Below, one piece after another: positions 5,549-29,573 of a DNA stretch of 32,000 nucleotides. The translations under genes and the position numbers were made by a program. This DNA comes from Candidatus Saccharimonadota bacterium. GTDB taxonomy: Bacteria > Bacteroidota > Bacteroidia > Cytophagales > Amoebophilaceae. Under the pieces are notes generated by a model. It saw only the letters and a program-made list of their open reading frames with translations, ran no database searches and had not been told where the DNA came from. How positions within the stretch are numbered: position 1 is the first letter of the stretch; each line of letters starts with the position of its first letter. The stretch is taken from contig NZ_OZ239769.1 in assembly GCF_965196625.1 (NCBI RefSeq), forward strand, positions 960,001-992,000. Reading direction: 5' to 3'.

Positions 5549-6583
5549 ATGAAAAAGTATTTAGTTTTGGTGCCTCTTATTGCATCCTGTAGTGGGGTAA
5601 GAGAGCCTAATAGTATGATGAAGAATCAAGAAGAAGGTAGTCAGGGGGAAGGATTGAGTAATGTAAATCTAAAAAATATTAATAATCAAAAATTGACAAT
5701 AAGTGGTCTGGTTGCACACAAATTAGCCAGTAAATGGCTTGGTAAGAAGCAGAATGAACTAAATCTAGATGATATTATAAAACACTTTAAAGAAATTAAA
5801 GAGAATCTTAAATACGTTAAATTGCCACAGACAGACTTTTTTAAGAAAAAATTTATTAATGCTTTGCTTAGTTATCATAAAAAAGATATTAGTACGTATC
5901 ATTTGATTCCTGAATCAGAGAGAAATAATGGTGATTTACAACTCATTCAAGCGTTATTAGAAATATTGTTGAATAATCCAGATATTGACGTTAATAATGA
6001 AAATTACTTTGGTAATTCCGCTCTCACATTAGCAATGGATATAGCTGATCCAGACGAGGATGATAGTAGAGACGTAATTTATATAAATTCATTCAAAATA
6101 TTGTTGAATCATCCAAATATTGACGTTAACATAAAAGATGGTAATGGTAATACCCCACTTGTTTTAGCAATAAGGCATATAAGTAGTGGGAAAGAATTAC
6201 ATGTAGAAAATGGGGTAAATGCAATCAAAATGTTACTAAATCATAAAAACATTGATGTTAATAAAGCAGGTAAGAGCGGACTGGTTCCTATCTTATTAGA
6301 ACTAACGAAAAAAAACACAAATATAGATGTATTAAAAATGTTGCTGGAGCACCCAAGCAATAATTTTAAGATCAACTCCGTAAATGATTCTAATCATACC
6401 TTGCTTAAAATAGCAATAGACTATTGTAATTTGGAGGCAGTCAAATTATTCTTGAGTTATCCAGATATTCTGGTTCGCAAAGAGGATTTGGATTTTGCAA
6501 AATCACGATATGATTATTGCAAGAGTGAAAAAACTAAGGCTATATACAACATGTTACTGAGCCATAAAGGTAATAAGGGATAA
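5549..6583 (+). CDS. ankyrin-repeat lipoprotein (eukaryote-like repeat protein)
   Basis: The N-terminus MKKYLVLVPLIASCSG is a signal peptide with a lipobox Cys. There are about 5 ANK-like repeats with a recurring LLNxPNIDVN...GNTPLxLAI pattern. The repeats are also visible at nucleotide level, for example 5971-6010 versus 6101-6140. Confidence 0.85.
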   Translation: MKKYLVLVPLIASCSGVREPNSMMKNQEEGSQGEGLSNVNLKNINNQKLTISGLVAHKLASKWLGKKQNELNLDDIIKHFKEIKENLKYVKLPQTDFFKKKFINALLSYHKKDISTYHLIPESERNNGDLQLIQALLEILLNNPDIDVNNENYFGNSALTLAMDIADPDEDDSRDVIYINSFKILLNHPNIDVNIKDGNGNTPLVLAIRHISSGKELHVENGVNAIKMLLNHKNIDVNKAGKSGLVPILLELTKKNTNIDVLKMLLEHPSNNFKINSVNDSNHTLLKIAIDYCNLEAVKLFLSYPDILVRKEDLDFAKSRYDYCKSEKTKAIYNMLLSHKGNKG

Positions 6584-6868: not shown

Positions 6869-8140
6869 CTACCCCTCTTCCTGGCCATATCTACTGGTTA
6901 AACTCAATGAACCAGATTTTTTATCAACTAGATTATACGTGGCATAAGCAGCTAACACCGATTTTCCAGAAAAGGCATTACCAACTTCTATTACCTCCTG
7001 GACATGAGGATATTGTAATATTTCAGTATGATAGGCTTGATTTTATATTTGCGATAAGGCCAGTTTAACTGAATTTTCCAGTTCTTCTTCTTTCCAAACC
7101 TGTTTAAATTCTAATAGCAGCGCCTTGGGACCTTCTTTTTTAGGTATTAATAAGAGATCGTAACGACCCAAACCACCTTCTCGATTGGAGCGTATATAAT
7201 GGGTGATACCCAAACTGGCTAACATCCCTAACACAAGACCATCGTAAAAGCCTTCTGATGTGCTACTTTTTTTTGTATAAAAATAGCTAACACTACGACG
7301 TAAAAAGTAACTAAGCTGTTCTACAAAAGCAGAAACCTCACCAACTACTAAATGTTTCAAAAAAGAATCATATTGTCGCTTTCGCTCAAACTGATTGACG
7401 AACCATTCTTGAAAAAATGTACTATAGAGTCTCCATATTTCATAGTTGGGTACTCTGACTCTACAATCATATACATTCGTATAGGCACTTAAATTACTTT
7501 TCTAAAAGGTCAAATAGCCAGCAAATAATAAAAGGCTCCAAAAAGATGTGTCATCTTTATCTAGGATATCAAAAGAAAGATGTTTATTAATGGATATATC
7601 TAAGGATTCCCCTCGCATTAACTGTTCAAATTGCTCTTTGATATCCGTATGAGCAGTAAGTATCTTTTGTTCAATTAAGTTATTATTACCCGTATTCACC
7701 CAATAGACATCAAAACGACCCGACTTATTGATACAAGAAATAATAGACCATGGATTATACATCACCAAGTTGTCTACTTTATAGCCATTATACCAGTTTC
7801 TTACTTCTTCCATGGAAGTACTAAGGCTTTGTCCTTTAAATAGAGATGAAACTTCATCTTCACTAAAGCCAAAGCGACTACTATACTCTTCGTCCAGCAA
7901 GGTATAAGTTTCTAGGTTATTCAACCCAGATAGCATACTATCCTTAGAAACACGCAATATGCCGGTTAATAGGCCTCTTTCCAGCGCAGTATTACCTTTT
8001 AGCGCATTACTAAATAGATTACGCATAAACTTGACCATACGATTCAAGTATGTCTTATTACCATAAGCTTTATTGAGTGGCGTATCATATTCATCTATTA
8101 GCATATAGACCTTTTGACCATGATGTTGGTAGAGGATTTG
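6869..8140 (-). pseudogene. AAA-ATPase-like / PD-(D/E)XK (PF09820+PF08011-type) gene, N-terminally truncated with two in-frame stops
   Basis: The track pieces 7502-8104 and 7043-7360, plus the untracked tail 6869-7042, are all in one frame. They are collinear with residues ~168-589 of the intact paralogue at 27804-29573. TAG at 7502-7504 replaces the Gln of ...YLTFQTSN. TAA at 7043-7045 replaces the Gln of ...QIQTQAY. The first ~165 codons are missing, and the break abuts the stop of the 8141-10216 gene. Confidence 0.85.
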
Positions 8141-10216
8141 CTAACAAGTTCCTTCACAAACCTGGAGCGCCTGGTTGGCTGCTTGTACCAATTCTTCTAC
8201 GATTTTAGCATTCAAATATTTCTTTCCAAGTTCAATATCTATTGTAAGGGTTTCTTGCGCCATATATTTTACCTCCTCTAAGTGTATATAATCCTTGGCA
8301 TGGCGCAAATCATAAAGTCGTTCAGCAAATTTAATGCAGAGCACAAAAAGTTGTTCTCGGTTAATGATGCGTTTGAGTCGATTCGCCACATAGAGTCCAC
8401 ATGGCTCCATCTCCTCACGTTTATTGAGGGTTACAATGCTTTCTACAAAATGGTAGACATCCATGCTATAATTGGCTTTAACATAAGCAAGCGGTAAACC
8501 TGCATAACGTACCAATCCATATAGCACACTGAAATAAACTGGTCTTGGTTGATAAGGCACCCATTCTGCTACCAACTGGGCAACATCTAACGCACGCACA
8601 TAAAATAATTGTCCTGACGCATGCCGTCTAAAACCATAACAACGCCTTACCAGTAGGAAAAGCTCATCTAATACAATTGTACGCATATCAGCCACCGTAC
8701 AAAGATTGTTATAGGCCTTCGTTAAGGTTACCATAGACTGCTTAAATTCCCTACAACTAATAGAGGGATCTGAAGGCTCTATTTTGGTAATCATTTCATC
8801 ACGGACCGCCGCTACATTACAAGGCACCACTATAAGCATAGGCCTTTTATGAGAAACCGGAAATTGCAAGTAACCATAGTGGATACGAACGATCCGTTCT
8901 ATATTCCGCTTTTCTATACTGGTCCACTCTGATTCTTTCTGCACCGCACTATTCCAACTACATGCACTACCTACCGTAACATCTTGATAGTGATTTCTAA
9001 TTTTAGGTAGAGCCTCTTGAGCAATAGCCGCATTGCTAATGACCAAAGCTATAGCAGGAAAACGCACCTCTTCAGCAGACTTATCTTTAGAAGTCTCCCT
9101 TGGCGCATATTTTAAATGGGTGGTATATAACTGCATCACTACAGAGGCATCTTTTGAAGCATCTAAGCTGGCAATATTTAAAATAACAGGCATCAATAAA
9201 GCAACCATTTGGTTGACATCGCATATAATTTTTTCAGGAAGTTTATCATCTCTGGGCTCTATTAACAGCTTGGGAATAGAACGCTCCTTGCTTTCCAATT
9301 CTAATGCAACCTCTAACTTCCGGATCAATTCATCAAGGCTAACCTCAATGGGTATCAAAATGATATGATTTCTAGATCTGGCCCGTTGCTTTAAAAAAAT
9401 GTCCCAAACCACAAAATTCTTGGTAATAAGATCTAAATCTTCCTTATAAAGCGGCCTATTATCTAAATAGGAAATAAATTGTGTAGCCTCTTTCATTACT
9501 TGGTCTATAAAAATAGGCGCTTCCTTTGGATGGTTACGAACCGTCTCTAGATCCGAATATAAATCAAAACCTGCTTGCCTTTCTTCTTCTTTCGTTTGTT
9601 TTTCTTTTATTTTGCTTTTTAAATAGCAGCCATGATATTTATAGCCAGCCAGCTTGCGCTTATTGTAAACAATAATAAAAAAAATCATTACACTCAACGC
9701 CAGCAAAGATGTTAAAAATCCAGCTGATTCCGATAACAATAGATCTATACCGCTACAGTATATGGAATAAATAATTACCAATAACATAACGGATACGAGC
9801 CTTACGCTTATACGCAATGGCAATACAAGTAAGGTTACGGTCAAATGGGCTACAGATAAAGCCAACGTAAAAACAGATGGAAGCTGAACCAGTCCTGACC
9901 AGCTCCAAAGCACATTAATAGGAAGACAAAAAACTACACTGATCAACCAACGTCGACCAATTTTCCAAGATGGAACCTCTTTTTTAGAATCGATTGCATA
10001 ACCTATAAGCGAAATAGCCGTAATAAATTGAAGCAGGTACCAGTAAATAAAACCCTCGCTTACATAATCTAATATAGTAGTGCATATAACGTAACAGCCT
10101 ATCATCCCCATCATAGCATCACTTGGCTTCAGCTTAGACAACCTTTCTTTTGTAAAAGAAGATTTCAGCAAGAAAAAGATTAATATTACAACAAAAGGTA
10201 GAATATTAAACGACAT
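8141..10216 (-). CDS. polytopic membrane protein with degenerate histidine-kinase-like and degenerate RelA/SpoT-HD-like cytoplasmic domains (paralogue A)
   Basis: The 691-aa ORF has about 5-6 hydrophobic helices in its first 190 aa. A DHp-like box FISYLDNRPL has Tyr at the phospho-His position. An N-box-like segment is ICDVNQMVALLMPVILNIASL, and IERIVRIHYGYLQF resembles a G2/lid region. The C-terminal RRHASGQLFYVRALDVAQLVAEW...VLYGLVRY...FVLCIKFAERLYDLRHA...AQETLTIDIE is collinear by eye with the SpoT HD domain, but the H, HD and ED residues are replaced. It is about 60% identical to 12239-14431 (estimated by eye). Confidence 0.7.
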   Translation of the reverse strand: MSFNILPFVVILIFFLLKSSFTKERLSKLKPSDAMMGMIGCYVICTTILDYVSEGFIYWYLLQFITAISLIGYAIDSKKEVPSWKIGRRWLISVVFCLPINVLWSWSGLVQLPSVFTLALSVAHLTVTLLVLPLRISVRLVSVMLLVIIYSIYCSGIDLLLSESAGFLTSLLALSVMIFFIIVYNKRKLAGYKYHGCYLKSKIKEKQTKEEERQAGFDLYSDLETVRNHPKEAPIFIDQVMKEATQFISYLDNRPLYKEDLDLITKNFVVWDIFLKQRARSRNHIILIPIEVSLDELIRKLEVALELESKERSIPKLLIEPRDDKLPEKIICDVNQMVALLMPVILNIASLDASKDASVVMQLYTTHLKYAPRETSKDKSAEEVRFPAIALVISNAAIAQEALPKIRNHYQDVTVGSACSWNSAVQKESEWTSIEKRNIERIVRIHYGYLQFPVSHKRPMLIVVPCNVAAVRDEMITKIEPSDPSISCREFKQSMVTLTKAYNNLCTVADMRTIVLDELFLLVRRCYGFRRHASGQLFYVRALDVAQLVAEWVPYQPRPVYFSVLYGLVRYAGLPLAYVKANYSMDVYHFVESIVTLNKREEMEPCGLYVANRLKRIINREQLFVLCIKFAERLYDLRHAKDYIHLEEVKYMAQETLTIDIELGKKYLNAKIVEELVQAANQALQVCEGTC

Positions 10217-10490
10217 TACAACTTGTTAATAAAAAAGAAAAAAACTAAAAATTATACTAAATTGCCCCAAAGAGCAGACAGAAAATCAACATAAACTGTC
10301 CTTAAAATTATAAAACTAAACCTAATAATTATACAACTTTGGATGGTCCTATCCAACTTACTTTGAATAAAAAAGCTATATTTGCCAAATAGGCAAAATA
10401 ACAATCGGACAATAAAAAGCAGGCAATGCTTTACTTTTTTCAATTATATTTACTACATTTGTAGTGGCATGTAATGAATTAGTTAATTTC

Positions 10491-10562
10491 TGTCCGGTAG
10501 TGTAATGGCAACACGTCTGGTTTTGGTCCAGAAGACTCTAGGTTCGACCCCTAGCCGGACAA
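10491..10562 (+). tRNA. tRNA-Gln (anticodon UUG)
   Basis: Manual cloverleaf: acceptor TGTCCGG/CCGGACA with U1:A72, D arm GTGT-AATGGCA-ACAC, and anticodon arm TCTGG-TTTTGGT-CCAGA giving anticodon TTG. The T arm is CTAGG-TTCGACC-CCTAG and the discriminator is A. No CCA is encoded. Confidence 0.9.
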
Positions 10563-10603
10563 CTTTGAATCCAAGTAGCATACTGCATAAACAAAAATTT
10601 AAG

Positions 10604-11956
10604 ATGGTAGGTTTCAAGCATAGTCGTGGCTTAATAACATTAGGGCTTTCTTTTTGCACATTACTCATCACACATGATATGGTGTTGGCAACAGGGGCAA
10701 AAGGGAAAAAGGATAAAAAGGTGGCAGTTGTATCTCCTACTATAAAAGAAAAATCGCCTGAGTTGGGTAATGCCAATAGCGCTGCGAACAAGCAGCTGCA
10801 AAGTGAGCTAGAATCAGAAAATGCATTGAATCGCGCACGCTTAGAAAAACAGCTTTCAGCTATTATTGCTCAAATTGAACGGCTACGTGTTGAGAAAGAG
10901 CTCCAGCGCTTGGGCAAAGAGGTAGCAGATGAAAATGCGCGGCGATCGCATGAAAAAGCCATGCTTTTACTCAATATGGAAAAAGAAAAACTTACCATGG
11001 AGTTAGAGCTAGCAAAGGCTAGGTTTATGCAACAAATGGAGTCGTATGATAGCGAACTAATTAAACTAAGTAAAAAAATAGAATTAGAAAAAGGACAAAC
11101 GCAGCTGCTCCAAGAGACTACCCACCGGGTACAAGCAGAAATAGAAGCCTTAAAAGCCAAAGCAGTACGAAATAACCATATTGCCAAAAGGCCTATTTAC
11201 CTGAAAGACCCATTGGTCAAACGAACGAATACCTTAGTGCTTTCTGATCGATGTATTGAATTAAACGGCTATATTATTCCCTGGAAAGCAAATTATATCG
11301 TAGACCAAATTAATTATTTTAACAATAAAAATAGTGATCATCCTATATTTATTATTATTGGTAGCTCTCCAGGTGGTTGTATAAGTGCAGGATGGAATAT
11401 TTTACAAGCGATAGAACATAGTAAAGCACCTGTCTATGTAATCGTAAAAGAATGCGCTGCTTCCATGGCAGCGCTGATCACTACATTGGCTACTAAATCT
11501 TATGCTTATCCAAATGCCATGATCTTACATCATCAGCCTTGGTCCTGTGTTTGGGGTAATCTAAGAGAAACAAAAGAGCATTATGAGTCCCTTAAGGAAA
11601 TATGGAAGCGTTTAGGGGGTAGAGTAGCCAAAAAAATGGGCATATCTCTTAAAGAATTTGATAAAAAACTTTATCAAAAATCGATGTGTGGGGACTGGAA
11701 GGAATATGGGGACAGTGCTAAAAAGCTTAAATGGGTTGATTATGTGATCAGTGGTATTCAAAATAGTGCGGTTAGCATGCTACCAGATGCAGCCGACTAT
11801 ACTTTTGAAAAATTTATAAAGCAATATTATGGTTTTGATGCAACAAAAGGAAAAGACCAACTTGCAGAAGAGCAATATTACCAATCTATAGCGCCCCATG
11901 ATTTTGACTATAGCTACAGGCCTGATAGAAAGGCGCAGATGATGCGCAAAAAATAG
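10604..11956 (+). CDS. signal-anchored coiled-coil protein with C-terminal ClpP-fold (S14-like) serine protease domain
   Basis: The track ORF starts at 10505 inside tRNA-Gln, so I moved the start to the ATG at 10604 (MVGFKHSRGLITLGLSFCTLLITHDMVLA, a signal/anchor). A heptad-rich region of about 180 aa follows (ELESENALNRARLEKQLSAIIAQIERLRVEKELQRL...). The ClpP-like core is IIIGSSPGGCISAG...ECAASMAALI...MILHHQPW...GDWKEYGDSAKKLKWVDYVI, with Ser, His and Asp all present. Confidence 0.75.
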   Translation: MVGFKHSRGLITLGLSFCTLLITHDMVLATGAKGKKDKKVAVVSPTIKEKSPELGNANSAANKQLQSELESENALNRARLEKQLSAIIAQIERLRVEKELQRLGKEVADENARRSHEKAMLLLNMEKEKLTMELELAKARFMQQMESYDSELIKLSKKIELEKGQTQLLQETTHRVQAEIEALKAKAVRNNHIAKRPIYLKDPLVKRTNTLVLSDRCIELNGYIIPWKANYIVDQINYFNNKNSDHPIFIIIGSSPGGCISAGWNILQAIEHSKAPVYVIVKECAASMAALITTLATKSYAYPNAMILHHQPWSCVWGNLRETKEHYESLKEIWKRLGGRVAKKMGISLKEFDKKLYQKSMCGDWKEYGDSAKKLKWVDYVISGIQNSAVSMLPDAADYTFEKFIKQYYGFDATKGKDQLAEEQYYQSIAPHDFDYSYRPDRKAQMMRKK

Positions 11957-11982
11957 GCTGCTTTTAGATCAATGCTAGGCTC

Positions 11983-12024
11983 ATGTGGTACTTTTTGATT
12001 TTTACAAAGCAGAAAGTACCACAT
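11983..12024 (+). terminator. 12-bp perfect stem-loop downstream of the ClpP-like gene
   Basis: The arms are atgtggtacttt (11983-11994) and aaagtaccacat (12013-12024). The stem starts 27 nt after the stop codon. Confidence 0.5.
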
Positions 12025-12238
12025 AAAATTCCTCATCCTCCCTCCTGCTGAACTGGAACTAAAAAGTTAGCAATCAAATCATTCCAAAGACTAATGTACT
12101 AATCTTTATTTCATAGATTAGATTTTTTTAAAATTCCAACTAAAATACTTGAATTTATTCTTATTATTGTATGGGACATGTATTTCATTTTATCTAATAT
12201 TTTGGAGTTCTTTTTAGCAACTTATAACCTATTTTACA

Positions 12239-14431
12239 ATGTCATTCCATATACCCTTTCTTATGGCATTACCCTTTTTGCTATTGGTGCTAGCAGCGGC
12301 TTTTTACCTTAGTAGAAGTGCTGCTCCCTCTGGCGAACACCGTTTAAACCACAAACAATTTGCTTATGAAATCAGGGCGATTCAACAAGCCATTACACGA
12401 AAAAAAGCCCGCATAAAAAAAAGATTACAAGCTGCTTATATAAAAGAAAGGTTCGCTAAACTAAGGCCAAGTGATGCTATGATGGGGTTGATAGGCTGTT
12501 ACGTTATATGCACTACTATATTAGATTATGTAAGCAGAGAACTGACTATTTATTGGTATATATTTCAACTTTTTATAGGCATTTGGCTAATAGGCTATGG
12601 CATAGCGCCTAAGAAGCGGGTCCCATCCTGGAAAATTGGTCGATCTTGGTTAATATGTACGGTTTTTTGCCTGCCCATAAATGTATTTTGGCATTGGTGG
12701 CATGTACAAGATGCTCAATTTGCATTAACCTTATCTATAGCCCACCTATCTGCCACTTTATTTGTACTGCCTCTGTATATAAGCATCAAAATAGTAGTCT
12801 CTACATTAGCAGTAATCTTTTACGCAATTTATAACATTGGTATTGACCAACTTTTAATATCAAATGATTCTTTGCTTTTTCTATTAGGGTTTGGCCTAAT
12901 CGTTTTTAGCATTATTATTTATAACAAGCGCAAAATAACTGCTTATACACTTTATAACCGCTACTTAAAAAGCCAAGTAAACCTAGCAGAAAATAAAAAG
13001 CATGAAGCTTCCCAAACTACATTCAATTTAGATGCAGAAGATACGGATAAAAACCCAAAAGAGGTTGGACCTTGTGTAGAAAAAGCCATGCAGGGCGTTA
13101 CTGAATTTATGTCCTATTTAGACCATAAGCCTCTTTATAAAGAAGATATCCAAAGTATTATCAACCATTTTGTCACTTTTACTACTTTTTTAAAGCAACG
13201 GGCCAGATCTATAGACCACATACTCTTAACCCCAAATGAGATTACTATAGATGAATTAATCTCTAAACTAGAAGCTGCTTTACAAGCTAAAACTGCACCC
13301 ACCCCAAAGATCGTAGTAGAGATAAAGGATGATGCCATTCCTAAAAAAATCATATGTGATATCAATCATATGATCCAATCATTGGTCCCCATTGTTTTGC
13401 GTACTGCCAACCTAGATGTTTCAAAAGGTGAATTGGTAAAAATTCAATTACATACTACGCACTTAAAATATGCACCAAAAAAGGGGCAAGAAAGCAACTA
13501 TCATTCGGAAATGAACTTCCCAGCTATAGCGCTGGTGATCAGCAGCGCTACTACGCCCATAGCCATATTACCTAAAATTAAAAGCTGCTATAAAGATATT
13601 ACAGAAGGCAGAGAGCTGAAATGGCACAGCAATCAGACAGATTCAGAACGTATACATATTGAAAAACGGATCATAGAACGAGCCGTTCGTGCCCACTACG
13701 GTTACCTACGCTTTCCCCTTTCCAAAAAAAGGCCTATGCTAATGGTATTGCCTTGTAATGTAGCATCTGTCCGTGATGAAATGATTTCCAGAATACTTCC
13801 TTTGAATGTTCCTATAACCCAAAAAGAAATTGAACAGTCGATGGAAGTTTTTATAAGATCTTATAACCATCTTTTAGAGATATCGGAGGCGCGTAAAGCT
13901 GTAATAGATGAGATACTGCTATTAATGAGGAGGTGTTATGGTTTTAGGCGCCATCTATCCGGACAATTGTTGTATATCCGCGCAATAGGTATTGCACAAT
14001 TGGTGGCAGAATGGATAAGATTCTATCCAGAACCAATTTATGTTGTTTTGCTTTATGATTTAGTGCATTATGCCGATTTGCCACTTTCTTATATTAAGGC
14101 CAATTATGATTTAAATATTTACTCTCTTATAGAGAATGTTTTAGCAGTAAATGACCGACAAGGTATGGAGCCATGTGGGCTTTATATTGGGAATGCCCTT
14201 AAACAAGTCATCAATCGAGAACAGCTTTTTGTGCTTTGCATTAAATTGGCTGAGCGTCTTTATGACCTACAACATGCTAAAAGCTATACCGAGCTAGATG
14301 AACTAAAATACATGGCCCAAGAAACCCTTACAACAGATATTGAGCTAGCAAAGAAATACTTGAATACTAAAATTGTAGAAGCATTAGCAAGCGCAGCAGA
14401 ACAAGCACTACAAGTCTGTGAAAAAAAATAA
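12239..14431 (+). CDS. polytopic membrane protein with degenerate HK-like and degenerate RelA/SpoT-HD-like domains (paralogue B)
   Basis: The 730-aa ORF has the same architecture and motifs as 8141-10216: FMSYLDHKPL, ICDINHMIQSLVPIVLRTANL, IERAVRAHYGYLRF, and RRHLSGQLLYIRAIGIAQLVAEW...CIKLAERLYDLQHA. It has about 39 extra N-terminal residues. Confidence 0.7.
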   Translation: MSFHIPFLMALPFLLLVLAAAFYLSRSAAPSGEHRLNHKQFAYEIRAIQQAITRKKARIKKRLQAAYIKERFAKLRPSDAMMGLIGCYVICTTILDYVSRELTIYWYIFQLFIGIWLIGYGIAPKKRVPSWKIGRSWLICTVFCLPINVFWHWWHVQDAQFALTLSIAHLSATLFVLPLYISIKIVVSTLAVIFYAIYNIGIDQLLISNDSLLFLLGFGLIVFSIIIYNKRKITAYTLYNRYLKSQVNLAENKKHEASQTTFNLDAEDTDKNPKEVGPCVEKAMQGVTEFMSYLDHKPLYKEDIQSIINHFVTFTTFLKQRARSIDHILLTPNEITIDELISKLEAALQAKTAPTPKIVVEIKDDAIPKKIICDINHMIQSLVPIVLRTANLDVSKGELVKIQLHTTHLKYAPKKGQESNYHSEMNFPAIALVISSATTPIAILPKIKSCYKDITEGRELKWHSNQTDSERIHIEKRIIERAVRAHYGYLRFPLSKKRPMLMVLPCNVASVRDEMISRILPLNVPITQKEIEQSMEVFIRSYNHLLEISEARKAVIDEILLLMRRCYGFRRHLSGQLLYIRAIGIAQLVAEWIRFYPEPIYVVLLYDLVHYADLPLSYIKANYDLNIYSLIENVLAVNDRQGMEPCGLYIGNALKQVINREQLFVLCIKLAERLYDLQHAKSYTELDELKYMAQETLTTDIELAKKYLNTKIVEALASAAEQALQVCEKK

Positions 14432-14554: not shown

Positions 14555-15715
14555 ATGGATATGCGACAATCTCCTTCCGGTCAAATTATACAATCACTCA
14601 AAGGCTATCATGCTTTCGTACCCTATGCGCTACCACCCAAATTTGAATGGAATACTAGGCTAGTCAACAGTTTGTCTCGTGCTGATTTTTTGCTTGGAAA
14701 ATTAGCACGAGAAGGCAGTAGATTACCGAATCCTCATCTTTTAATACGTCCATTCATCACCCGCGAAGCAGTATTATCTAGCAAAATTGAAGGTACCGAA
14801 GCCACTTTGGGAGAAATCTTAGCTGCTGATGCAGGTGCCCATGTAAACCAAAACGCCGACGCCCTCCAAGAGGTACAGAATTACATTAGGGCACTTGATT
14901 ATGGGCTCAAGCGCTTAGCAGCGCTTCCATTATCGTTACGCCTTATTAAAGAAATACATGCGCACTTAATGGAAGGGGTTAGAGGAACACATGCCACACC
15001 GGGCGCATTTAGGACGAGCGAGAATTGGATTGGCCTACCGGGCTGCACACTGCATACAGCAAAGTTTGTACCTCCACCACCTGAGCATTTAATGGATTCT
15101 CTAGGCAAATTTGAAGATTTTTTACATGACAGATCATTACCCCCATTGATTCATATGGCACTTTGCCATTATCAATTTGAAGCCATTCATCCATTTTTAG
15201 ATGGGAATGGGCGTATCGGAAGACTCTTGATTACACTGCTGTTGATTGAGCAAAATATCCTTCCTTTACCTTTATTATATTTATCTGCATTTTTTGAAGC
15301 AACACGCAATGAATATTATAAACAGCTTTATAATGTTACCTTGAAAGGGAGCTGGCACGAATGGTTCACTTATTTTTTAAATGGCATAGCCGTTCAATCT
15401 GAGGATGTTTTATCGCGTACTGAACGGATAAATGCATTATTAACGCAATGGAAAATGGACCTTGCAAGAGGGAGCTCCCAAGTACTCATAGACATGGTAC
15501 AGCTTTTGGCTGTAAATCCTTATTTTACCATCAACAAAGTGGCTAAAGATCTTAAGATTTCATACAGCACTGCACAAAGAGGGGTGCAAAAACTTGAGGA
15601 TGCCGCCATTATTAAAAAAACGCGTAACAACAAACGGGATAAAGTGTACTGTGCTATTGACCTATTAAATATCCTGGAGGAACCTACAAGAATCAACGCC
15701 GATATTTATGCATGA
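14555..15715 (+). CDS. Fic family protein (AMPylase-type), class II with N-terminal inhibitory motif and C-terminal wHTH-like region
   Basis: The canonical Fic motif HPFLDGNGRIGR is at 15188-15223. The inhibitory (S/T)xxxE(G/N) motif SSKIEG is at 14777-14794. The total length of 386 aa is typical of the Fic_N + Fic + wHTH architecture. Confidence 0.92.
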   Translation: MDMRQSPSGQIIQSLKGYHAFVPYALPPKFEWNTRLVNSLSRADFLLGKLAREGSRLPNPHLLIRPFITREAVLSSKIEGTEATLGEILAADAGAHVNQNADALQEVQNYIRALDYGLKRLAALPLSLRLIKEIHAHLMEGVRGTHATPGAFRTSENWIGLPGCTLHTAKFVPPPPEHLMDSLGKFEDFLHDRSLPPLIHMALCHYQFEAIHPFLDGNGRIGRLLITLLLIEQNILPLPLLYLSAFFEATRNEYYKQLYNVTLKGSWHEWFTYFLNGIAVQSEDVLSRTERINALLTQWKMDLARGSSQVLIDMVQLLAVNPYFTINKVAKDLKISYSTAQRGVQKLEDAAIIKKTRNNKRDKVYCAIDLLNILEEPTRINADIYA

Positions 15716-15848: not shown

Positions 15849-16235
15849 ATGGCCATCAAATCAATCGGCCAGTTAAGTGCGGCAGATATTGCAGCTATCA
15901 AGCGTAAATGCAAACATACCTTTTTTGATCAAATCAATAAGCTCATTAACTGGTCATCGATAGAAGAGGCTCTTCAATTGTATTATCCTAAAGGCCTACG
16001 TTTATCAGGAAAGCCAGCCTATAGCCCACTCCTTTTATTTAAAATGCTCTTGCTTCAGGCTTGGTATGGAATGCGTGATTACCAAGTAGAAGAGGAAGTC
16101 AATGACCGTATCACTTTTAGCGGATTTTGTGGTATTTCTATGGATAGTTCTGTTCTAGACTAGAGTGTGTTAAGTAGATTCAGAACTGCCCTTACAGAGA
16201 AGAAATCCCTAGAAAAGTTATTGAAAATCATTGAG
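15849..16235 (+). mobile_element. IS5-family transposase N-terminal stub (DUF772-type), inactivated and truncated
   Basis: The sequence PAYSPLLLFKMLLLQAWYGMRDYQVEEEVNDRITFSGFCGI is the InsH/IS5 N-terminal domain. An in-frame TAG at 16161-16163 is followed in the same frame by SVLSRFRTALTEKKSLEKLL. The DDE catalytic domain is absent. Confidence 0.8.
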
Positions 16236-27803: not shown

Positions 27804-29573
27804 ATGATGAAAAAATTACCAATTGGAGTAAGTAACTTTCATAAGTTGGTATCTAACGATTACCTATTTTGCGATAAAACAGCCATGATTGCTGAATTTC
27901 TCAATAAGGGTGACGAGGTTACGCTCATTGCCCGCCCTCGTCGATGGGGCAAGACACTCAATATGTCTATGTTGTGCCATTTTTTTGCATCAGAGGTGAA
28001 TGGACTCAGTACAGCAGGCTTATTCGATGATTTAGCGATTAGCAAAATAGATGGTGGTAACCACATTGCACAACATCAAGGTAAGTATCCTGTGATTATG
28101 CTAAGTTTTAAGGATGTTAATGCAAGTGATTTCCAAGGGGCGTACAATGCAGTCTATGAATTGATTTTAAAGGTGTATAGTAGCTATACTTATTTATTCA
28201 ATAGTGATAAAATTAATGAGCTACAGTTAGAGCAGTTATATGTTATTCGAAAAAGACAAGCTAATCAACAACAATTAGAATCTTCCTTAGAGCTCCTTAG
28301 TCAATGTCTCTACCAACACCATGGTCAGAAAGCATATATGCTCATAGATGAATACGATACCCCACTCAACAAAGCTTATGGTAATAAAGAATACTTAGAC
28401 ACTATGGTCGCATTTATGCGTAACCTATTTAGTGCTGCTTTAAAAGATAATGATGCATTAGCAAGGGGCGTTTTAACGGGCATATTGCGTGTGTCTAAGG
28501 ATAGCATGCTCTCTGGATTGAATAACTTAGAAACCTATACCTTACTAGATGAAGAATATAGCTCTCACTTTGGTTTTAGTGAAGATGAGGTTTCATCTTT
28601 GTTTCAAGCTAATGGTCTTAACACTTCCATAGAAGAAGTAAGACATTGGTACAATGGCTACAAAGTAGGGAGCTTGGTTAGGTATAATCCTTGGTCTATT
28701 ATTGCTTGCATCAATAAAACGGGTCTTTTTGATGTCTATTGGGTTAATACGGGTAATAATGATTTAATTAAGCAGTTGATTGGCGCTTCTAATGATAACA
28801 TCAAATCGAAATTTGAACAACTTATGCAAGGAGAGGCGTTAACCGTTCCTGTAGACAAACATCTTGCTTTCGACTTGTTAGATAGAGATGAAACTGCTTT
28901 ATGGAGTTTACTTTTATTTGCTGGTTATTTAACCTTTCAAACGAGCAACATAAGTGCAGATAGTGATTTATATGATTGTACGGTTAAAGTGCCAAATGAT
29001 GAAATACGTAGACTATACAATAGATTCTTTAAAGAATGGTTGAGTAGTAAGTTTATGGACCAAGGGGTGTATAACTCCTTTTTAGAACATTTAGTAGTTG
29101 GTGCAGTATCGACTTTTGTAGAAGCATTAAGCTTGTTTTTACGACAAAGTGCTAGTGCTTTTGATACACAATTTTCTAGAAAATCAGAAGGGTTTTACCA
29201 TGGTTTTGTCTTAGGGATGTTGGCTAGTTTAGGTAGAACTCATTATGTAAAGTCTAATAGAGAAAGTGGATTAGGGCGTTATGATCTGTTATTAATCCCT
29301 AAAAAAGAAGGTTCAAAAGCAATTCTACTGGAGTTTAAACAGGTTCGGAAAGAAGAAGAACTGGAAAGTTCAGCTAAAATTGCTTTACAGCAGATACAAA
29401 CGCAAGCTTATCATACCGAACTATTGCAATACCCGCATGTTAAAGAAGTAGTGGAATGCGGTATTGCTTTTTCTGGAAAGTCGGTTTTAGCGGCTTATGC
29501 TACCTATGATTTGATCGATAAACAGTCTAGTGATATTATTTTAACGAATAGATATGGCCAGGAAGAGGATTAG
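27804..29573 (+). CDS. AAA-ATPase-like / PD-(D/E)XK nuclease-family protein (PF09820 + PF08011-type), intact copy
   Basis: The 589-aa ORF begins MKKLPIGVSNFHKLV...ARPRRWGKT, a P-loop-like segment. The Walker-B-like segment is YMLIDEYDTPL. The C-terminal nuclease-like motif is GRYDLLLIP...ILLEFKQV (D...ExK). Confidence 0.8.
   Translation: MMKKLPIGVSNFHKLVSNDYLFCDKTAMIAEFLNKGDEVTLIARPRRWGKTLNMSMLCHFFASEVNGLSTAGLFDDLAISKIDGGNHIAQHQGKYPVIMLSFKDVNASDFQGAYNAVYELILKVYSSYTYLFNSDKINELQLEQLYVIRKRQANQQQLESSLELLSQCLYQHHGQKAYMLIDEYDTPLNKAYGNKEYLDTMVAFMRNLFSAALKDNDALARGVLTGILRVSKDSMLSGLNNLETYTLLDEEYSSHFGFSEDEVSSLFQANGLNTSIEEVRHWYNGYKVGSLVRYNPWSIIACINKTGLFDVYWVNTGNNDLIKQLIGASNDNIKSKFEQLMQGEALTVPVDKHLAFDLLDRDETALWSLLLFAGYLTFQTSNISADSDLYDCTVKVPNDEIRRLYNRFFKEWLSSKFMDQGVYNSFLEHLVVGAVSTFVEALSLFLRQSASAFDTQFSRKSEGFYHGFVLGMLASLGRTHYVKSNRESGLGRYDLLLIPKKEGSKAILLEFKQVRKEEELESSAKIALQQIQTQAYHTELLQYPHVKEVVECGIAFSGKSVLAAYATYDLIDKQSSDIILTNRYGQEED

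Follow-up and report, generated by a model that had tools for sequence, protein, structure and literature searches.

Genes A (positions 8141–10216, minus strand) and B (12239–14431, plus strand) lie in a 32,000-nucleotide stretch of contig NZ_OZ239769.1 from an Amoebophilaceae bacterium (positions 960,001–992,000), referred to below as the window. They encode proteins of 691 and 730 amino acids that are probably anciently duplicated and selectively maintained members of a family with the architecture SLC5/SSF symporter, ~6 transmembrane helices, kinase-like core, and SpoT-like HD domain. The same degree of confidence extends to their evolutionary history as a whole. The starting point would have been genuine sensor kinases with SSF, HisKA, and HATPase_c domains, as found in Rickettsiales such as Candidatus (Ca.) Megaira. 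In the Amoebophilaceae, the H, N, G1, and G2 motifs would have disappeared from the kinase core, while the proteins carried at their C terminus a SpoT-type (p)ppGpp hydrolase domain, of the type known as rickSpo, whose catalytic motifs were intact. All five catalytic elements of the HD domain would then have been replaced in the Cardinium clade with the near-invariant motifs HxSGQLxYVRA, LLY[DEG]L, and KLAERLYDLRH. Finally, A, B, and a third group of short paralogues would have lost the symporter by internal deletion, retaining one N-terminal helix and the downstream membrane module.

Both proteins consist of an N-terminal hydrophobic helix and ~6 transmembrane helices, a pseudo-histidine-kinase core, and a pseudo-SpoT HD domain. 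Both open reading frames (ORFs) were confirmed in position, strand, and length, and every sequence segment quoted from them in an initial annotation of the window was found in the proteins. That annotation had recognized the two genes as paralogues facing away from each other and estimated their identity by eye at ~60%. The paralogy and divergent orientation hold, with BLASTP giving 55% identity and 72% positives over 674 amino acids, but the annotation did not mention that a gene for a 483-residue ClpP-like protein (10505–11956, plus strand) separates them. The Cardinium endosymbiont of Nabis limbatus has a ‘hypothetical protein’ with exactly the sequence of B (100% identity), and every one of the 42 close homologues of B (42/42) comes from Cardinium. 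Orthologues of A in other Cardinium genomes are 76 to 87% identical to it, and orthologues of B in seven other genomes are 67 to 85% identical.

The C-terminal domains of A (about residues 515–689; 8150–8674, minus strand) and B (residues 555–729; 13901–14425, plus strand) are dead RelA/SpoT-type HD domains. The Pfam HD_4 profile, which has 156 positions and a gathering score of 27.2 bits, matches A with E = 0.0073 (16.5 bits, profile positions 4–145) and B with E = 1.6e-4 (21.8 bits, profile positions 5–145). Both scores fall below the gathering cut-off, but each match covers nearly the whole profile, and several Cardinium paralogues do carry a precomputed PF13328 match. A profile of 37 family members compared by HMMER with sequences from the Protein Data Bank (PDB) matches the hydrolase domain of the GTP pyrophosphokinase 9s6k_B with E = 0.0044. 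In an AlphaFold2 model of B, the HD region has a predicted local distance difference test (pLDDT) score of about 80 to 93, and Foldseek aligns the model with the RelSeq structure 1vj7_B (E = 5.2e-4, template modelling (TM) score 0.47, root-mean-square deviation (rmsd) 4.4 Å, 205 columns) and also with Bacillus subtilis Rel (8acu_A). The domains of A and B have the all-helical HD fold, can be aligned with intact relatives, and share common descent with the hydrolase domains of Rel and SpoT. The HD-domain alignments proposed in the initial annotation are thus reproduced by the HMMER match to a PDB Rel protein, by Pfam HD_4, and by alignment to the intact relatives.

The intact relatives, which are of the type found in Ca. 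Amoebophilus asiaticus, show the full set of SpoT motifs in this alignment: RxSGEPFYLHP, ALLHDxVEDT, KLADRLHNMRT, and ETLxFFVPLA. In A, B, and every other Cardinium-type member, HxSGQLxYVRA, LLY[DEG]LVxY, and K[LF]AERLYDLRH stand in place of the SpoT motifs. Protein A, with HASGQLFYVRA, VLYGLVRYA, and KFAERLYDLRH, retains none of the five catalytic elements. In B, the first His is replaced by R581, the His-Asp pair by Y606-D607, the Glu-Asp pair by His-Tyr, the Asp by E672, and the His-Asn pair by Y675-D676. A census of 177 HD domains found all five elements in 73, none in 82, and a partly degenerate set in 22. The 82 constitute the Cardinium-type clade that includes A and B; the catalytic residues have thus been lost throughout the clade as a fixed state, rather than by sporadic decay. 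Across 37 sequences with overall identities of 35 to 100%, the residues that replaced them are invariant or nearly so. The claim that every metal-binding and catalytic residue of the HD domain is substituted in both copies is therefore borne out (0/5 elements in A and in B vs 5/5 in 73 relatives), and the sequences predict that A and B have no (p)ppGpp hydrolase activity. Partial loss of the catalytic elements also occurs in ~22 members outside the Cardinium-type clade (P0128, P0103, P0125, P0173, P0085, P0095, and ~16 others), so that inactivation of the hydrolase seems to have recurred in the family.

Between the membrane module and the HD domain, B contains a predicted hairpin resembling the dimerization and histidine phosphotransfer (DHp) domain of histidine kinases, followed by an α/β domain resembling their catalytic and ATP-binding (CA) domain (residues 270–520; 13046–13798, plus strand). 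The collinear region of A, defined from the family alignment, spans about residues 227–480 (8777–9538, minus strand). In the full-length model of B, residues 333–517 form a confident α/β domain, and a Foldseek search of the PDB with this model returns DHp-CA modules first, led by RetS (E = 1.9e-5) and followed by ZraS, HK853, CckA, DivL, and EnvZ. With a separate model of residues 262–527, the top 50 matches are all kinases, with a best E value of 1.2e-7 and 147 matches at E ≤ 1e-3.

A chain of intermediate sequences leads to the same conclusion. The proteins with an intact HD domain have Ca. Amoebophilus asiaticus proteins as their nearest relatives, followed by genuine sensor kinases of ~930 amino acids with SSF, HisKA, and HATPase_c domains, one of which is encoded on a Ca. 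Megaira plasmid. Full-length profile-profile alignment of the Amoebophilus-type family with these SSF-kinases gives a probability of 100 over 907 columns and extends to column 928 of 930, at the end of HATPase_c. When the symporter and transmembrane helices are removed, the Amoebophilus-type middle domain aligns by hhalign with the HisKA and HATPase_c core (probability 96.7, E = 4.1e-10, 233 columns). The Cardinium middle domain in turn aligns with the Amoebophilus-type middle domain (probability 99.4, E = 5.7e-21). Judged by its modelled fold, a DHp helical hairpin plus a CA α/β sandwich, and by common descent through this chain of homology, the middle domain of A and B is a kinase core.

In the hhalign register, the first Asp of the N-box corresponds to D374 of B, which is invariant, the Mg-binding Asn to R388, and the Asp of the G1 box to a Ser. 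The register further places LPKIKxxY (LPxIKxxY in the family) on the ‘ELxxIFxxF’ segment that follows G1, and IERAVRAHYGYL on the helix and ‘aHgG’ segment that follow G2, with AHYGY on ‘aHgG’ and G2 itself replaced by non-Gly residues. The N-box-like and lid-like segments named in the initial annotation, the latter following G2, are recovered in this alignment, and its statement that there is no DxGxG box was right given the Ser at the G1 Asp column. The Tyr of FMSYLD/FISYLD, which it had proposed as the equivalent of the phosphorylated His, was misplaced. Three mappings put the phospho-His column of B at K271 (MAFFT), K274 (HMMER to ThkA), or P278 (the hhalign chain), while Y293 is 15 to 22 residues downstream of this stretch, at the hairpin end of helix 1. 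No conserved His occurs in the phospho-His stretch of 37 members, although the stretch is poorly conserved and has low pLDDT. The N-box Asn column holds R388 in B, Asn in A, and Ser in the orthologues of A. None of the H-box His, N-box Asn, G1 DxGxG, and G2 GxGxG is conserved in the family, including the Amoebophilus type, which indicates that the kinase died before the hydrolase.

Several results weigh against deriving this domain from a kinase. Neither A, B, nor any of 14 isolated middle domains matches Pfam HisKA or HATPase_c at E < 10, and comparison of the Cardinium middle domain with kinases directly is not significant by Pfam or hhalign. The DHp part of the B model has low confidence (pLDDT < 50 for residues 254–329). 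The isolated middle-domain model reaches a pLDDT of only about 70, with Foldseek TM-scores of 0.4 to 0.46 and large rmsd values, the latter because the relative orientation of DHp and CA is poorly fixed in the model. These results would fit an unrelated α/β domain that converged on a Bergerat-like fold in the AlphaFold model. We consider such an origin very improbable, because both steps of the profile-profile chain are significant and keep one register (D374, AHYGY, LPxIKxxY), the full-length alignment of Amoebophilus-type proteins with SSF-kinases runs to the last HATPase_c columns, a weak independent HMMER match to the DHp domain of ThkA falls in the same register, and the top 50 fold matches are all kinases. 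The initial annotation of a dead histidine kinase therefore stands by way of structure and the intermediate chain. It had named the lack of a significant kinase profile match as grounds for abandoning the claim and, taken literally, direct searches found no such match; the kinase is visible only through structure and intermediates.

At least one of the two domains could still be an enzyme that uses non-canonical residues, either as a metal-independent phosphohydrolase in the HD fold or as an atypical nucleotide-binding CA domain. The pocket positions R581, Y606, E672, Y675, and D676 are strictly conserved, as expected for a functional site, and acidic residues (D/E607, E672, and D676) remain near the old metal site. 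However, all of the His metal ligands and the Glu-Asp catalytic pair have been replaced, the CA-like domain lacks the Mg-binding Asn, the adenine-binding G1 Asp, and both Gly-rich lids throughout the family, and no Pfam catalytic family is matched at threshold. Residual catalysis is consequently improbable, if somewhat less so than a non-kinase origin of the middle domain.

The N-terminal parts of A and B are best understood from their longer relatives. An exhaustive hidden Markov model search of 1.84 billion representative sequences found 283 relatives, of which the more distant, at ~1150 amino acids, combine a sodium:solute symporter domain with a strong HD_4 match (E = 1e-26 to 1e-30). Cardinium paralogues of ~1170 to 1200 amino acids, including P0029 and P0036, carry an N-terminal symporter domain (PF00474). 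Neither A nor B matches PF00474, and of the 13-helix SSF/LeuT-fold transporter domain only one relic helix is left. In B this relic, a single hydrophobic helix, comprises residues 3–42 (12245–12364, plus strand), which are 35% identical to residues 4–43 of P0036, its first transmembrane helix. The same residues match the last symporter helix of P0029 about as well, making the deletion junction ambiguous. Residues 46–130 of B align with the linker and transmembrane module that follow the symporter in the ~1170 to 1200-residue paralogues. From these two alignments, A and B seem to have arisen by in-frame internal deletion of almost the entire transporter, and under either reading of the junction the topology of the remaining membrane part would be preserved. 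The post-symporter linker and ~6 transmembrane helices of B occupy residues 46–235 (12374–12943, plus strand; aligned with residues 476–554 of P0036 and 483–576 of P0029), and the AlphaFold2 model places helices at residues 5–25 and 79–235, in agreement with hydropathy. The membrane module of A covers about residues 1–190 (9647–10216, minus strand), as judged from alignment to the post-symporter module of the fused paralogues and from hydropathy peaks at residues 3–21 and 92–185. The ‘membrane sensor’ of the initial annotation is thus supported as a membrane module by the model and by hydropathy, but is better read as what remained after deletion of the symporter domain. The gene call for the B orthologue in the Cardinium genome CP101107 starts only at the counterpart of residue 68 (L001 10001–11989), with a separate 50-residue ORF just upstream (L001 9825–9977). 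In that strain, the relic helix at the N terminus may be dispensable or split off.

Catalytically dead genes in a region rich in mobile-element debris, here AAA-ATPase fragments at 7043–8104 and a transposase fragment at 15849–16163, could be neutral relics of an expanded symporter/HD family or of mobile-element cargo that have not yet accumulated stop codons. In one Cardinium strain, SSF/HD fragments were proposed to be elements resembling miniature inverted-repeat transposable elements, and so to be mobile-element debris (PMC12039267), which counts against retained function, as do truncated family fragments in other genomes and the loss of all catalytic residues in A and B. Selection largely refutes this explanation. 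Ratios of nonsynonymous to synonymous substitution rates (dN/dS), calculated by the Nei-Gojobori method for orthologues from three genomes, are 0.11 to 0.25 for A and 0.12 to 0.20 for B, at dS of 0.53 to 0.69. By part, they are 0.04 to 0.11 for the HD-like domain and 0.12 to 0.32 for the kinase-like part. Between A and B the ratio is ~0.27, but at dS > 1. Full-length orthologues of A and B occupy the syntenic position in seven to eight genomes, within a core neighbourhood, and the replacement residues are themselves invariant. That A and B are relics is accordingly very unlikely. The orthologue dN/dS and the conservation across genomes of the cluster formed by A, the ClpP-like gene, and B indicate that they are functional pseudoenzymes, and the initial argument for function from the retention of two long intact copies is now backed by both. 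A survey of 185,579 species, each represented by one genome, detected the dead signature K[LF]AERLYDL at 55 loci in seven Cardinium genomes and otherwise only in one Amoebophilaceae metagenome-assembled genome; the clade that contains A and B is thus confined to Cardinium and related Amoebophilaceae.

The two copies have also exchanged sequence. Positions 10058–10126 (minus strand) in A and 12467–12535 (plus strand) in B are identical at 68 of 69 nucleotides, compared with ~70% in the rest of the gene pair. Within this tract, B is 71 to 80% identical to its own orthologues vs 84 to 90% identical to the orthologues of A. This resemblance indicates strain-specific gene conversion between the inverted paralogues, with A as the probable donor and B as the probable recipient.

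Parts of this family have been described before. Fourteen Ca. Amoebophilus asiaticus proteins were classified as ‘rickSpo’ hydrolase-only RelA/SpoT homologues alongside one Rel, and were treated as small single-domain hydrolases, with no mention in the main text of symporter, transmembrane, or kinase-like parts (Atkinson et al, 2011; PMC3153485). An expanded ‘spoT / sodium glucose cotransporter’ family was noted with 18 copies in Amoebophilus and 2 to 7 in Cardinium (Brown et al, 2018; PMC6232779), members of the family are expressed in cEper1 (PMC5698495), and fusions of SLC5sbd with kinases were described in Rickettsia (Driscoll et al, 2017; PMC5615194). Our literature search found no account of the dead kinase core, of a Cardinium HD domain that has lost its catalytic site, or of derivatives lacking the symporter. 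The initial impression that the architecture belongs to no described family therefore needs qualification: the combination of dead kinase and dead hydrolase was not found described, but the HD domain belongs to the published rickSpo group and the gene expansion had already been noted. The doubly dead, transporter-less form is new, whereas its parent symbiont family is known but functionally uncharacterized.

Four known kinds of protein come closest to A and B, whose C-terminal domain is homologous to the HD domain of the rickSpo proteins from Amoebophilus, with a common fold and motif spacing and no synthetase domain. The rickSpo members, however, keep the RxSGEPxxxHP, HD, ED, D, and HN motifs, while A and B keep none of these and score below the HD_4 gathering threshold. 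The SLC5sbd-histidine kinase fusions of Rickettsia and Ca. Megaira have the same order of symporter, ~6 transmembrane helices, and DHp-CA module, and the Amoebophilus-type relatives align to them, but these fusions possess bona fide HisKA/HATPase_c motifs and no HD domain, whereas A and B have a dead core, an additional dead HD domain, and no symporter. The pseudo-hydrolase domain of Escherichia coli RelA is a RelA/SpoT-type HD fold without catalytic residues that is kept for a non-catalytic role. In RelA, the dead domain is joined to an active synthetase and to TGS/ACT domains in a soluble, ribosome-binding protein, while in A and B it forms the C terminus of a membrane protein that has no synthetase. 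RetS, DivL, and the kinase-related domain of plant phytochromes are DHp-CA modules that signal without a canonical phosphorelay, and RetS in particular is a non-catalytic kinase that acts on GacS by DHp heterodimerization and not by phosphotransfer. Heterodimerization of the RetS DHp domain is also given in the title of PDB entry 7n0e. RetS is the best or second-best structural match to B in Foldseek, which also matched DivL and phytochromes. RetS and DivL retain recognizable HisKA/HATPase_c signatures, whereas Pfam detects none in A and B, whose flanking domains also differ.

The gene between A and B (10505–11956, plus strand; 483 amino acids) encodes a ClpP-fold serine protease (PF00574, E = 2.8e-22) with a signal-peptide-like N terminus and a coiled coil. 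Its Ser (in AASM) and His (in HHQP) align with the ClpP catalytic residues. The ORF is probably over-extended at its 5′ end, because its orthologues start at the equivalent of M34, which is probably the true start (about 10604). In all eight genomes (8/8), the gene immediately precedes the B orthologue and shares its strand, and among 59 loci it adjoins no other paralogue. Its dN/dS is about 0.27. The order A (minus), ClpP-like gene (plus), B (plus) recurs in other Cardinium genomes, even where insertion sequence elements have been inserted. Six terminator-like hairpins are present in 10100–12400, compared with 1.9 ± 1.3 expected from shuffled sequences, with several of them within the ClpP-like coding region on the opposite strand.

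The core neighbourhood consists of Rho, SerRS, the cluster of A, the ClpP-like gene, and B, and then an epimerase, a hydrolase, and DnaN. Strain-specific insertions interrupt it in the window. An ankyrin-repeat protein (5549–6583, plus strand) is encoded between SerRS and A, whereas CP101107 lacks it there and has SerRS immediately next to the A orthologue. The AAA-ATPase fragments beside A are two adjacent ORFs (7043–8104, minus strand) of the AAA-ATPase_like (DUF1703-type) family, of which the piece at 7502–8104 matches PF09820, and an intact copy with AAA-ATPase_like and PDDEXK_9 domains lies 20 kb away (27804–29573, plus strand). This family is expanded and mobile-element-like in Cardinium (PMC12039267). 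Immediately downstream of B, 14555–15715 (plus strand) encodes a Fic_N and Fic/DOC protein with a C-terminal winged-helix domain, which looks like a strain-specific insertion since a Transposase_31 gene occupies that position in CP101107. The transposase fragment noted above follows at 15849–16163.

How A and B act can be proposed only tentatively. They could be non-enzymatic membrane signalling or scaffold subunits, and the scheme as a whole appears possible rather than probable. In this scheme, the DHp-like hairpin would form homo- or heterodimers, plausibly with the symporter-bearing paralogues, by analogy with the action of RetS on GacS. The remodelled, metal-free HD pocket would be a putative binding module for a ligand or partner. 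The near invariance of the residues now in the pocket (Arg instead of the first His, Tyr instead of the His in HD, Glu instead of Asp, and Tyr-Asp instead of His-Asn) suggests that the pocket was turned into a binding site. B may further be functionally coupled to the secreted ClpP-fold protease encoded just upstream, although the signal-peptide-like N terminus of the protease speaks against such coupling, since the soluble domains of B are expected to be cytoplasmic.

The architecture of the Amoebophilus type suggests that the ancestor was a transporter-coupled alarmone hydrolase. If Cardinium no longer makes (p)ppGpp, the hydrolase would have had no substrate left, which would explain how its catalytic residues could change. 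A more elaborate proposal, which we regard as speculative and unlikely in its entirety, is that the Cardinium HD pocket is a receptor site for (p)ppGpp or for another nucleotide or phosphorylated metabolite, that the family forms a one-component ‘transceptor’ pathway, and that A and B are RetS-like modulators of the transporter-bearing paralogues. The symporter would then sense a solute supplied by the host and signal through the dead kinase core to the SpoT-type domain. In Amoebophilus, that domain would be hydrolytic and would directly couple the stringent response to nutrient supply from the host, whereas in Cardinium it would only sense or act as a scaffold.

Cardinium is an insect symbiont that manipulates arthropod reproduction. 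The family to which A and B belong is among the largest and most highly expressed in Cardinium and Amoebophilus, where the literature refers to 12 to 19 ‘putative symporters of unknown function’. Annotations such as ‘hypothetical protein’, ‘HD domain-containing protein’, and ‘spoT’ mislead metabolic reconstruction, since Cardinium should not be credited with hydrolase activity, while the intact Amoebophilus form predicts a direct link between solute uptake and (p)ppGpp turnover. Living lineages would preserve a stepwise series in which the kinase chemistry of a transporter-linked sensor kinase is lost first, an alarmone hydrolase is then acquired and inactivated, and the transporter goes last. 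Strong purifying selection nevertheless still acts on each remnant, although the endosymbiont genome is shrinking. The family is thus a natural test case for the roles that pseudoenzyme domains take on after catalysis is gone.

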